A DNA stretch of 64,000 nucleotides, taken from the NCBI GenBank assembly GCA_951406725.2, contig OX597818.1, forward strand, positions 109,864,001 through 109,928,000. The letters run 5' to 3'. The notes beneath the pieces are model-generated. The model made no database searches. It was not told the origin of the DNA and saw only the letters and a program-made list of their open reading frames with translations. The translations under genes were made by a program, and so were the position numbers. Below, in pieces: positions 3,020-58,667 of this stretch. The stretch's first letter is position 1. Each line of letters begins with the position of its first letter. Source of the DNA: Octopus vulgaris. Its lineage: Eukaryota.

Positions 3020-3404
3020 TTCTATATTTAGGAGATGAGGAATTATGCCCACGGGCATATGGCGTAGTGGTTAAGAGCGCGGACTACTAACTCCAAGGTT
3101 CCGAGTTCGATCCCAGGCAGTGACCTGAATAATAATAATAATAACAATAACAACAACAACAATAATAATAATAATAATAATAACAACAATAATAACAATA
3201 ACAATAATAGTAACAATAACAATAATAATAATAACAACAACAACATCAACAACAACATCGAAAGATACCTTAGGAATGAGAACCCAGGTTCCAAATTTCC
3301 CCAAGACACCCGATGAAGGCTGGAGGGTATATCAGCTGAAATGTTGTGTTAACAACAAAGAAGGTGAGGGCAAATATCCGTCAAATGTAAATAATGTAAA
3401 TAAT
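3020..3404 (+). mobile_element. tRNA-promoter plus hammerhead repeat (family HS), copy 1
   Basis: A box TGGCGTAGTGG, B box GAGTTCGATCCC, (AAT/AAC)n tract, then a mutated HHR (CCGATGA-A-GGCTG...CAGCT-GAAA) and TGTAAATAA tail repeats. Preceded by an inverted piece of its own 3' end (3020-3046). Confidence 0.8.
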
Positions 3405-4557
3405 GAAATGTTTTGATCGAGTTCATAACGTCTCGCCCGGCCAGGAAGGGAGCTCATAACTCAATGAATATGAGTCAAACAGCCAAACTGCGAGGTCCCA
3501 TGTTTCCATTTGAACACGAATTAGATATCAAGTATTTCTAACAAAGCCCTTCATCAGTAATATAAGTATGCATTGCCTTATGTTATTCGGTGCTAAAGCT
3601 TTCTATATTTATTTCATCACCAACAGGAATTGATACCGCCTCTTGTCCAACATCTGTAGTCTCATTGTACTCTAGTGGTTATATAAGTATTTCAATGTCT
3701 TCAGCCTGCCACGCTCCTCCCTATTTTTCTGTTTCTTTTCTCTCGTTATATCGTCCATTGTCTCAATCTACTTCACCCACTCACCCGTTTCTAACATCTC
3801 TCCCCTCTCTCAATCATTCTCTTTAATCAAATTATCCACCCACCATAGACGACTTTGTTTCTTTTAACATGTCTCTGGTTTCTTAACGTTTTTATGAAAG
3901 ACATCAACATCAAAACCGAAACTCGATATATCGGCCGTGAATGAATACATCTATTCTTAAATTCTATTGCGCTGCTTCCTTCTATTAAATATTGTTTTGT
4001 TTCACAATAAGGAGACGTGGGACTTGACCAACCGAAGAATACAAGACTCACTACTGAATACACAAAACAGAGAGAAAACGAACAAGAACAAAAGAAGAAA
4101 CCTCACCAACAACATCCTTTATACAACAATATCAATGTCCCTTGTTTCGCCATGTTATTCATGTAAATGCAACTTGATACGTTTAAAGCTATTCATTGGA
4201 AATTTCATAAAACAATTGCTAATAATTGGCAGACGATAAATATAATTGTTCAATAAAGACTAACTTTGGAATTTGAGAGAGAATCTATTATATTAACTAA
4301 AGCAGTAGAATTTATTGAAAACGGGCCATGAATTATGATTGCGTATTGCATATTTTATTTTCATTTTATGATAATATTGGTGAACAATGGCATAATGGGC
4401 CTTAGGATTTGATCTGATCAGTCACGAGTTGCCTGCATTCCTGACTCTCGTAACGGAAAGGAATTCAGTGCAACATATATTAGATAAAGCTATAAATACT
4501 AGCATGGAGGTTTTGGGCTGAAAGCCATTTGGGGTTTGAAAGAAAAAAAGCTGAAGA

Positions 4558-4618
4558 ACGCCCGAGGGACTCGAACCCACAGACACGACAGGCATTCGAC
4601 CATTGGACCAATGCAGTC
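4558..4618 (-). pseudogene. tRNA-like fragment (tRNA pseudogene or isolated SINE head)
   Basis: Minus strand has TGGTCCAATGG (A box) and GGGTTCGAGTCC (B box) but is too short for a full cloverleaf. Confidence 0.5.
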
Positions 4619-4657
4619 ATTCAAATTTCTCGAACCATTTTAGAAACTTTATTCTTA

Positions 4658-4893
4658 CCTATTTCTTTACCACCCACAAGGGGCTAAACGCAGAGGGGAC
4701 AAACAAGGACAGACAAACGGATTAAGTCGATTACATCGACCCTAGTGCGTAACTGGTACTTAATTTATCGACCCCGAAAGGAAGAAAAGCAAAGTCGACC
4801 TCGGCGGAATTTGAACTCAGAATGTAACAGCAGACGAAATACTGCTACGCATGTCGCCCGGCGTGCTATCGTTTCTGCCAGCTCGCCGCCTTA
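4658..4893 (-). mobile_element. SINE family A (tRNA-like head, Nin/Deu-like central domain)
   Basis: AGGCGGCGAGCTGGCAGAAAC...GAGTTCAAATTCCGCCGAGGTCGACTTTGC.TTTC.TCCTTTCGGGGTCGATAAATTAAGTACC. Many related copies in the window. Confidence 0.85.
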
Positions 4894-55252: not shown

Positions 55253-56813
55253 ATTATTATCTATTTAAAAAAATTTTTTTATTGCCCACGGGGGGCTAAA
55301 CATAGACGGGACAAACAAAGGGATTAAGTCGATTGCATCGACCCCAGTGTGTAACTGGTACTTATTTAATCGACCATGAAAGGATGAAAGGCAAAGTTGA
55401 CCTCGGCAGAATTTGAACTCAGAACGTAGCGGCAGACGAAATACGGCTACGCATTTCGCCCGGTGTGCTAATGTTTCTGCCAGCTTGCCGCCTTCATTGT
55501 TATTATTATCATTGAGTGAGAGAGCAGAACATGCCATCAAAATTATTATGGTATACAAATATACAAAACCCAATATACCCATCATGACTACCTGTCTGAT
55601 AAGGGTACACCAGGCACATGCATGACATGGTGACCTCATATCAAGATAAACAGTGCATAACCATGCAGGTGGGGGCTGTATAGTCATGGCTAGAATGCAT
55701 AGGTCTTGTTGTCCAAGGTTGATAGGGAGCTAAGCAACATAAATGGCTGTAGCAAAGTCTGAACTCATAAACTTCTTGTCACAGCTTCTCCTCCCCAGCC
55801 ATTGCATCATGCTTGAGGCAGTGAAATGTTTTGTGGTGAAGGATTCCATAGTTCAAACAATGAGTGAATAATCCTACTAACATAGAAATGATAAAGATAT
55901 CAACAGACACAATGAGAGTTCAAACTCTTATGAACTTTTCAGCTTCTGCTAGTTTGTCACTTGTCATTGACCTCCTGTGGAGATCTTGCCCCAATACTTT
56001 GTGAATGACAAGCAGTGTTCAGTAGACAGTAGCCATGTACCTAATCATGACCACTGGGGAACCATCATGAAAAGTTTTAGGCTGTGTGGTAAGTAGCTTG
56101 CTTACCAACCACATGGTTCTGGATTCAGTCCCACTGTGTGGCACCATGAGCAAGTGTCTTCTACTATAGCCTCGGGCTGACCAAAGCCTCGTAAGTGGAT
56201 TTGGTAGATGGAAACTGAAAGAAGCCTGTCATATATATATATATATATATATATATATATATATAATACAAATAAGAAAATGGAGAAACAATTTAGTTTG
56301 TTCATCAGCTTTCGGATATTAGAATGTTGAATTATTTATTCATTTAACAAAAAAGAGAACCTTAATAGCATACATATATACATTATATTTCAATACATAT
56401 AAGATAAGGATACAATTATAAAAATCATAATATAAATTATTGAAATCATATATATATATCTTACAAAGAATAAGTCCTGGGGTCGATTTGTTCGACTAAA
56501 GGTGGTACTCCAGCATGGCCACAGTAAAATGACTGAAACAAGTAAAAGAATGAAAAAAAAAATAATAAAAGAATGAATTGACTCAATACCTTTTTTTTTT
56601 TTTTTTTTTTAAACCTGGTACATCATATTCTTTTGGTCTTTATTGCCAAACTGTTAAGCCATGGGGACATCAAAGCACCAATGCCACCGAATCAGACGAG
56701 AACAAATGCAGTTCAAGAAGCAAGAAGCACTACTGATGCTATTCGCATAGTCAGGCAACTGCAAGAGACTAGTGAAGAATAAACCATTCTACTTAGCATT
56801 TGTTAATCTCGAG

Positions 56814-57360
56814 CAGGCCTGGCCAACTTGGATTACATTGCAGGCCAGTTTAACCCTTTAGCATTTAAACTGGCCATATCCGGCCAAAAATATTCTACTT
56901 GTTTTATGTTCAAACTAGCCATATCTGGTCTCTCACACCAACCCTACAATACCGTTTAAAAAATTAACAGCTACCTCATTAAAATCTCATAGCTACAAGA
57001 TAATGCATGATTAGTTCAAAACAATGTAGATGAAGAAGCATTAATTTTGACAGAATAATGCGAACACTAAAGGGTTAATCACAGAAAGTATTTTGAGGGC
57101 TGCTTGTATACTGACCAGATTGAAAGCATTTTGCTTTCTCATGCTTTTATTACAATAATGAATGAATGATCGTTGATTCAATATGAAATATTATCGTTGC
57201 AAAAACATTGCTATCTTTATTTTTTACTTTTCATTGCAATCTTTAATGTTTGATAAAATTTCTAAAATGTTTGTTTGAATAACCTCATTTCTAGAAAGTA
57301 TCAAGCAGACTGCAAGATAAACGTCTGTGTGGCCCACGAGCCTTAGGATGGCGAGCCCTG
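56814..57360. mobile_element. hAT-type MITE
   Basis: CAGGCCTGGCCAA...TGGCGAGCCCTG with an 8-bp TSD ATCTCGAG/ATCTAGAG. Confidence 0.8.
56854..57074. mobile_element. piggyBac-type MITE
   Basis: TTAA|CCCTTTAG...CTAAAGGG|TTAA; related copy at about 27258-27495. Confidence 0.85.
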
Positions 57361-58250
57361 ATCTAGAGAAAACCTGTGTTATATAGTGGGTACTGAGAAG
57401 GCTAGGGGTAGATGAGTAGCTGCTAAAAGCTGTACAGGCCATGTGCAGAGACACTGTCAGTTAGGTGAGAGTTAACGAGTATAGCAAAGAATTTGGTGTA
57501 CAAGTAGGGGTTCATCAAGGTTGAGTCCTCAGTCACTTCCTTTTCTTCATTGTCCTCCAGGTCATAACTGAGGAATTCAAGACAGGCAGCCCCAGCCCTC
57601 ATAGCAGATTCTATATCAAACCTAGAAGAAAAATTCTAAGTGTAGAAGCAAAACCTAGAATCTAAGGGTTTTAAGGTTAACTTAGCAAAGACTAAGGCCT
57701 TAGTATGCTAGAAAACAGACAGGACCCTACCCACTTCAGGTAGGTGGCCCTGTTCGATTTCATAGAAAGGTCTAGGCAGGAACTCAATACGGTGTACCCA
57801 GCGTAAGCTGTGGACACACAAGAGGTACAGTGGTTTGATAAGGTCATCGAAGAAGCTAGTGTTTGTATGTTGAAGATGCACAGGAGCCATAAAAACTATA
57901 AAGACTCAGGAAATTAATTTTCTCAAATGCTTTGGCAGCTCATTAGAAGTAGAAGATAATTTCTGCTACCTAAGGGACCATAGTAGTAGTGGGGGGATGG
58001 ATGGAGAGTGTAATAGCTAGAATAAGAATAGGATGGAGGGAATTCAGAGAGCTGTTACCTCTGTTGGTCGAGGAAGATTGTATGATGCATGTATATGGAC
58101 AGCAATTCTATGTGGTAGTGAGATGTGGGCCCTGAATGCAGAGGATATGCAAAGGTTAGAGAGGAATGAGGCTAGTATGCTCTGCTGGATGTGTAATGTA
58201 GGTGTACATGTTTGACAATGTGAGTGCTTTGAGAGAGAAGTTAGACATAA

Positions 58251-58667
58251 GAGGAATTACATTATATACATTTGATGGATATTTGTCCTCATCTTGTTTG
58301 TTGTTAACACAATGTGTTGGCTGATATACCCTCCAGCCTTCTCATTCCTAAGGTATTTTTTGATGTTGTTATTATTACCATTATTATTATTGGAATCGAA
58401 CTCGGAATCTTGGGGTTAGTAGTCTGTGCTCTTAACCACTACGCCATATGCCCATGGGCAATTATGGAGTGAATTTTAGGGCTTATAAAGCTAATATTTT
58501 CCTATCCTTCCTTAATAATAACAACATCGAAAAATACCTTAGGAATGAGAACCCAGGTTCGAAATTTCCCCTAAGGCACCTTTTGAAGGCTGGAGTGTAT
58601 ATCAGCTGAAACGTGTTAACAAAGATGAGGACAAATATCTGTCAAATGTAAATAATGTAAATAATGT
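58251..58667. mobile_element. Family HS inverted pair (decayed)
   Basis: Minus copy 58251-58512 followed by a 5'-truncated plus copy 58513-58667; HHR cores deleted or mutated. Confidence 0.8.

Follow-up and report, generated by a model that had tools for sequence, protein, structure and literature searches.

A Penelope/Poseidon-type retrotransposon of Octopus vulgaris with a tRNA-like segment, a likely RNA polymerase III promoter, and a minimal hammerhead in its terminal repeat

We analyzed a stretch of 64,000 nucleotides from Octopus vulgaris (assembly GCA_951406725.2, contig OX597818.1, positions 109,864,001 to 109,928,000, termed here the window) in which a preliminary description had recognized four loci of one layout, interpreted as a short interspersed element (SINE)/retrozyme hybrid that owed its transcription to RNA polymerase III (Pol III), cleaved itself and was mobilized by the machinery of Penelope-like elements (PLEs). 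These loci are almost certainly 5'-truncated, mostly inverted insertions of the pseudo-long terminal repeat (pLTR) of a Penelope/Poseidon-type retrotransposon. The best reading of the evidence, to which we assign a probability of about 0.6, is that a tRNA-like segment with A and B boxes in this pLTR served as the Pol III promoter of the element. Most copies that reach the tRNA-like segment end at its start, and it is on this account that the element was likely transcribed by Pol III.

The parent element and its terminal repeat

The repeating unit from which the loci derive has a majority sequence of 2685 nt (~2.7 kb, lacking two small insertions) with one open reading frame (ORF) of 833 codons. 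The unit is composed, in order, of the ORF (reverse transcriptase, RT, followed by a GIY-YIG-type endonuclease, EN), its stop codon at 2326, 30 nt, the tRNA-like segment or head (2352-2432, with box A at 2365 and box B at 2408), an (AAT)n spacer, an ATG, a minimal hammerhead (core at 2546, predicted cut after 2581), Asn-rich repeats and the 5' end of the ORF of the next unit. The A/B-box segment lies 30 nt after the stop codon. Linkage of the head to the ORF was found on both sides. Of 30 genomic matches to a piece of the ORF end (window 58460-58517), one of them that of the window itself, 28 place this piece immediately 5' of the head in element orientation; farther upstream, translation revealed a decayed ORF in which motifs of RT and endonuclease were recognized. 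On the other side, the tail or the 30-nt extension preceded the 5' end of the ORF at 21/25 loci, as in a partial tandem pLTR. The 'tail' is read as the 5' part of the ORF. The suggested dependence on PLE machinery was borne out, and all of the layout makes up the pLTR of the element that encodes the RT.

The assignment of the coding region was based on profile, fold and homolog comparisons. The RT was matched by Pfam RVT_1 with an E of 2.7e-6, just under the cut-off, and the best fold matches of the RT model were to TERT (E 7.9e-10 for copy L073, which retains 569 open codons). The C-terminal EN piece of L073 gave no direct Pfam match; it aligned unbroken through the stretch of homolog P0096 that scores above the Pfam cut-off for GIY-YIG. 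Reading of the translation placed Cys and His residues as in an EN of the CCHH type, while the extra Zn-finger linker of Neptune and Nematis and the N-terminal EN of Naiad were absent from the ORF as read, the clade being placed by features of this kind. A search for a sister family, made with P0001, returned matches of 53-71% identity, several at already known places of this family. None of 86 matches held a full-length intact ORF, and the family therefore looks inactive now. A short intron across the 9-nt repeats (candidate GT-AG) was disfavored, as it would cut out a motif kept in homologs; the reference sequence used for the RNA reads carries a deletion at this candidate intron. Pieces of other PLE families, ~33% identical to the ORF, were also observed (L148:932-1744 and L122:96-572).

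The interpretation of the loci as a separate SINE/retrozyme hybrid was not sustained. The head belongs to the ORF-bearing element, and the heads of short (43) and ORF-linked (47) copies were found to share one majority sequence with no diagnostic sites and to be equally diverged (7.6%), so that a distinct SINE subfamily was rejected. In addition, two arms (L105 and L198) extend ~105 nt into the 5' end of the ORF and must therefore have been primed on ORF-bearing RNA. The short copies carry an A/B-box head at the 5' end like tRNA-derived SINEs and do not form an independent non-autonomous lineage. Head-to-tail arrays of the short unit, that is, the tandem non-coding hammerhead units of non-LTR retrozymes, were not found among the loci examined, no genome-wide tandem search having been run.

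The tRNA-like head, the hammerhead and the start codon

The A and B boxes and the internal position of the putative promoter agree with the preliminary description, the boxes lying, as judged from the nucleotide sequence, within the pLTR of the RT-encoding element. The head was colinear with the tRNA-Arg(TCG) of the same genome (z 8.2), which ranked first among the 31 tRNA loci compared; as these represent 7 isotypes only, the parent tRNA is tentative. Although neither Rfam nor ARAGORN called the head as a tRNA, a combined A+B pattern matched the head and all nine tRNA controls and none of 79 related PLE loci. In the same analysis, 18 related 3' UTRs scored 27-44 compared to 64 for this element. 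Box A plus box B matches were also detected outside this family at 37806 (-) and 13473 (-) of the window; these are probably the heads of other SINEs.

The positions at which copies end were determined by reading the main arms of 36 copies that had been chosen only on their last 65 nt (36/40 places). The main arm ended in the tail for 10 copies, in the spacer for 7, within the head for 8, at 2350-2365 for 10 and beyond this point for 1. Accordingly, of the 11 copies that reach box A, 10 end within these 16 nt, a concentration that differs from the truncation rate inside the head at P 7e-9. When 73 head-bearing arms were compared, a set from which arms picked for holding ORF sequence had been dropped, 47 were found to start at 2350-2366, with 11 at 2351-2352 and none at 2344-2350. 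This wall of 5' ends at 2351-2352 is 13 nt before box A, and a SINE-type Pol III start is expected ~13 nt before box A. The sense strand of the unit was also devoid of any run of four T (T4) over 2685 nt (P 0.030 by synonymous shuffle, 0.003 with Phe codons freed and 0.007 by base shuffle), whereas at least two T4 runs were present in 43/44 related ORFs of at least 400 codons.

The hammerhead was recovered as originally described: helices I and II comprise 5 bp and 6 bp, helix III is palindromic and minimal, and the cut is predicted after 14300. By its pattern it would count among the minimal type I hammerheads known from PLEs, with an unpaired base before helix II, G10.1-C11.1, a palindromic 15.2-16.2 and helices I and II present. 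For the copy at 14255-14310 the hammerhead was the minimum free energy fold, though no better than shuffles (z -0.62), and two full cores were seen in the window compared to 0.04 expected. The proposal of a hammerhead at every locus was correct for the region and not for the motif: the whole core was present in only two of six hammerhead-region arms (14265 and 47672), of which only that at 14265 keeps both helices by eye, and in 72/156 arms of the family. Rfam gave no hammerhead call. Since Rfam and ARAGORN were blank on hammerhead and head, the hammerhead was established by pattern and covariation instead. A core-only search of the 79 related PLE loci, which are from metagenomes, provided 21 distinct sequences, or 22 with this one, as well as 9 matches on the reverse strands. 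In this set the first four pairs of helix II were 98% paired with many pair types, in contrast to 32-40% when the alignment was slid. Conservation of the core within the family was uninformative because copies decay neutrally; the sole core position above background variation was N7 (U to A in 12/125 unselected arms).

Small deletions were found to cluster at the predicted cut (unit 2576-2582, window 14295-14301), with 24 events in 123 arms compared to 0-6 in the other 7-nt bins. Deletions of any size that touch the cut site were more frequent in ORF-linked arms (15/33) than in short arms (4/24; P 0.027). This cluster may represent a ligation junction, the rival explanation being slippage in a local GT repeat. 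Minimal PLE hammerheads cleave weakly in vitro, and only as dimers (PMC4209133).

Ahead of the conserved N-terminal motif there is one in-frame ATG only, and it is located 5' of the hammerhead; the 61 codons that follow read through the hammerhead region without a stop (P 0.0065); thus, the 9-nt 'tail' repeats are likely Asn-rich codons. In one of 120 homologs (P0003, 55% identical, residues 17-50), the ORF also reads through a hammerhead-like stretch, with a score of 90 compared to 33 +/- 6. By contrast, the ORF begins after the hammerhead in L241 and L273, the only two related loci with a readable ORF start. Raw RNA reads from two runs covered the tail (~1500-2900, well-aligned bins), the head (~500-1000) and the EN (~700-800; X21) to a far greater depth than the 5' part of the ORF (~5-30). 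These reads are unstranded, fragmented and without start or end peaks, and bear neither for nor against Pol III or cleavage.

Proposed transcription, alternatives and comparison with known systems

In the mechanism that we propose, Pol III would initiate ~13 nt before box A in the upstream pLTR, the region in which PLE transcripts are reported to begin (PMC2377424), and, encountering no T4, would continue through ORF and downstream pLTR until it meets the first run of T in the flanking sequence. Reverse transcription would be primed by the RT/EN of the element close to the end of a pLTR. SINE-like copies of ~330 nt, ending where transcription starts, would result if this takes place at the upstream pLTR or on the short transcripts of lone pLTRs, and ORF-linked copies if it takes place at the downstream pLTR. 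Inverted arms would come from fold-back or from priming a second time. For the hammerhead, slow cleavage in dimeric form is predicted; re-ligated circles would account for copies that extend across the start site, and in them the AUG would again be joined to the ORF. The three of five upstream pLTRs that run into ORF sequence need a tandem or circular template, such as has been proposed for PLEs (PMC4209133). The parts of this scheme differ in strength. A Pol III start probably lies behind the short copies, while the odds that Pol III made the full-length RNA appear slightly below even. Only tentatively do we suggest the most far-reaching version, in which an autonomous protein-coding retrotransposon moved to Pol III by capture of a tRNA promoter in its terminal repeat, terminators were purged from its 2.7 kb, and its start codon came to be 5' of the hammerhead, so that cleavage would stop translation except where re-ligation has closed the RNA into a circle. 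The SINE-like copies would then be a by-product, a SINE born from a PLE.

Several observations weigh against transcription by Pol III. A hairpin at 2344-2367 (-9.6 to -10.8 kcal, top 0.6% of the 30-nt windows of the unit) straddles the predicted start, and the 5' ends are spread over 15 nt. Five upstream pLTRs reach box A, of which two stop there and three continue into ORF sequence, and thus templates longer than the RNA from a Pol III start site existed. The T4 result is modest, as runs of four G are absent too and a majority sequence was compared with single natural copies; the natural copy L073 has three T4 runs in 1710 nt, and the related L244 has none in 473 codons. Uncapped RNA would need cap-independent translation, of which no sign was seen here. 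Pol III has been argued to be too poorly processive for autonomous retrotransposons and to be limited to elements of ~1.3 kb by this property (PMC10886601), and eight of nine retrozyme dimers remained uncleaved in one study (10.64898/2026.07.22.740005).

The main rival explanation, which we regard as unlikely, is that of an ordinary PLE transcribed by RNA polymerase II (Pol II) that gained a tRNA-derived fragment passively, the cluster of 5' ends being due to stalling of RT and fold-back at the hairpin. The strength of this hairpin, the inversions often centered on palindromes there, the read-through of the site by three of five upstream pLTRs and the modest T4 statistics would all be accounted for. 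The ends, however, form a wall on the 5' side (2351-2352, with 2344-2350 empty) and not a peak at the 3' base, and the similarly strong helix II (-8.1 kcal) was passed by all 36 arms without a cluster of ends (0/36 stopped). Intact A and B boxes and the complete lack of T4 would moreover both be left as coincidences. Still less probable is a split system, close to the view of the preliminary description, in which Pol III makes only short pLTR RNAs that behave as a true SINE in trans while full-length RNA and protein are provided by Pol II. The lack of diagnostic variants and the equal divergence of the 43 short and 47 ORF-linked heads argue against such a division, as do L105 and L198, primed on ORF-bearing RNA, and the absence of T4 in the ORF is left unexplained by it; in its favor, the whole promoter is present in every short copy, short copies outnumber ORF-linked copies at the head boundary by 10 to 1, and schistosome Sm-alpha and Sj-alpha have the same order of promoter then hammerhead (PMC6765202).

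That the hammerhead is a non-cleaving relic kept only as protein-coding sequence is very improbable. An open frame through the motif and the poor in vitro cleavage of minimal PLE hammerheads (PMC4209133) are what such a relic would predict, yet the same core and a covarying helix II occur in 21 related sequences, the motif is outside the ORF in L241 and L273, and small deletions cluster at the predicted cut.

Taken together, these results point to a PLE of the Penelope/Poseidon type with a captured tRNA-type promoter module, an identity that is near certain and, going by sequence features, with likely use of Pol III. Penelope/Poseidon EN+ PLEs share with this element a single ORF for a TERT-like RT plus an EN of GIY-YIG type at the C terminus, partial-tandem pLTRs, inverted 5'-truncated arms, an extension of 30-40 bp at one end, target-site duplications (TSDs) and a minimal pLTR hammerhead (PMC8557442, PMC2377424). 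The element differs from them by the A/B-box segment of its pLTR with 5' ends fixed there, by the lack of a sense T4 and by a sole in-frame AUG 5' of the hammerhead; the Penelope promoter that has been tested is LINE-like (long interspersed element; PMC2377424). Sm-alpha and Sj-alpha likewise place a type I hammerhead behind a Pol III promoter that derives from a tRNA (PMC6765202, PMC2770079); these are non-coding, often tandem and have canonical hammerheads, whereas the module described here is the terminal repeat of an RT-encoding element. The TRIMp3 elements Cassandra, Helenus and Ajax similarly have a small-RNA-derived Pol III promoter inside the terminal repeat, but are non-autonomous LTR elements of at most ~1.3 kb, and their autonomous partners are argued to need Pol II (PMC10886601). 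Non-LTR retrozymes, described for animals, have a type I hammerhead, an origin in PLE pLTRs and PLE-dependent mobility in common with the copies described here; unlike these copies, for which no arrays were seen, they form head-to-tail non-coding arrays, and no tRNA promoter is reported for them in the accessible parts of the sources (PMC7229834, 10.64898/2026.07.22.740005).

A literature search found no RT-encoding PLE with a tRNA-type promoter in the accessible parts of its sources, and none is mentioned in the main text of PMC13282606 or in the accessible parts of PMC8967140 and PMC4758252; as Repbase, Dfam, subscription papers and supplements were outside this search, the family may have been recorded before by a different name. 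R2 differs from the element described here in being co-transcribed by RNA polymerase I (Pol I), in the HDV-like type of its ribozyme and in having a fixed target, the ribosomal DNA. Pol III normally makes short non-coding RNAs only, and to our knowledge autonomous retrotransposons are taken to be transcripts of Pol II or co-transcripts of Pol I. By analogy, R2 is alike in being a retroelement that codes for protein, has a ribozyme at the 5' end and has an RNA that is uncapped and not from Pol II (PMC6765202). If our reading is true, a PLE driven by Pol III would break the Pol II/Pol I rule, and its 833-codon ORF would have to be translated independently of a cap. The start point of PLE RNA, the function of the pLTR hammerhead and a role of circles as templates would also become testable, with direct readouts provided by the fixed 5' end, by the location of the AUG upstream of the cut and by the deletion cluster at the cut. 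Even on weaker readings, the family would provide a route from a PLE terminal repeat to SINE-like, ribozyme-bearing elements such as Sm-alpha, and such PLE-derived copies would be liable to mis-annotation as SINEs.

Insertions in the window and other repeats

The insertion geometry of the family was PLE-typical, as had been proposed, with inversions, a one-sided 30-nt extension and TSDs. An inverted arm was present in 23/36 copies picked on the 3' end and in 5/8 unselected loci. For the 24 inverted loci with both 3' ends measurable, the extension was found at one end in 20, at neither in 4 and at both in 0. TSDs of at least 12 nt were detected at 13/73 loci compared to 0.5% by chance. Copies L182, L184, L196, L203, L207 and L209 start inside (AAT)n tracts, some of them of other repeats, which suggests microsatellite-aided joining or targeting. 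The genome is estimated to hold ~19,000 loci (range 5,000-48,000), as extrapolated from four loci in sixty arbitrary 10-kb stretches to the 2.8-Gb assembly of 227 contigs; the window, with four loci in 64 kb compared to four in the 600 kb sampled elsewhere, is enriched. The head divergence of 7.6% would correspond to roughly 20 million years at the rate used in PMC13282606, a figure inflated by CpG sites.

Head and tail were confirmed at all four loci of the window, as were the (AAT/AAC)n spacer, the hammerhead region and the 9-nt repeats. The inverted copies noted at three of the four loci were likewise found, at 3015-3047 (-), 47232-47528 (-) and 58257-58517 (-), with the correction that the piece at 3015-3047 is not the TGTAAATAA tail. 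It is instead the 30-nt extension beyond the TGTAAATAA tail, with which the following unit begins in the 5' region of the ORF. At this first locus, the inverted extension is followed on the + strand by the head (3046-3127, which has a leader of 6 nt, boxes A and B at 3060 and near 3104, respectively, and its 5' end at unit position 2351), the (AAT/AAC)n spacer (3128-3254) and the pLTR tail (3255-3408), in which a hammerhead with a mutated core at 3310 precedes the Asn-rich 9-nt repeats; a 12-nt TSD-like repeat surrounds the locus. The second locus is entirely on the + strand, with a head from unit position 2363 (14099-14168), an (AAT/AAC)n spacer (14169-14208) and a pLTR tail (14209-14358) that includes the in-frame ATG at 14230 and the intact minimal hammerhead at 14260-14305. 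The third locus is formed by an inverted arm (47232-47528, -) of head, spacer, tail with a small cut-site deletion and 30-nt extension, and by a direct arm (47523-47764, +) of head from unit position 2361, spacer and tail, with the core intact at 47672 and helix I weakened. Its inversion center is a 6-nt palindrome at 47523-47528.

The fourth locus has an inverted arm of head and tail with the hammerhead core deleted (58257-58460, -), then spacer and the final PLE ORF codons with the stop at 58483-58485 (58461-58517, -), and a direct arm of short spacer and tail with a mutated core (58513-58667, +). The preliminary description had taken 58460-58510 for element sequence upstream of the head, in agreement with our finding that the minus strand of 58460-58517 encodes the last ten codons of the RT/EN ORF and the stop. 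An alternative in which 58458-58515 are Asn codons running into (AAT)n on the + strand was rejected, since the translated frame has stops and the piece is 5' of the head on the element strand. The left flank of this locus (58000-58250) resembles by eye what we take to be a decayed fragment of an RTE-type LINE.

A second, unrelated element was observed with 439-nt arms at 19872-20310 (-) and 21878-22316 (+) that are 99% complementary; the ~1.6 kb between them has no RT-like ORF. A (TA)n tract is found where the right arm ends, and the + arm carries at 22026-22131 (+) a hammerhead with a full core, of which helix III is palindromic and helix II spans ~90 nt (z -4.7). This element (19872-22316) looks like a young non-autonomous PLE. 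Several dispersed repeat families, abundant and SINE-like by eye, were also present: at 4658-4899, 24127-24368, 55260-55501 and 61396-61821; at 25449-25677, 54532-54875 and 59879-60181; and at 43029-43328 and 45621-45920.

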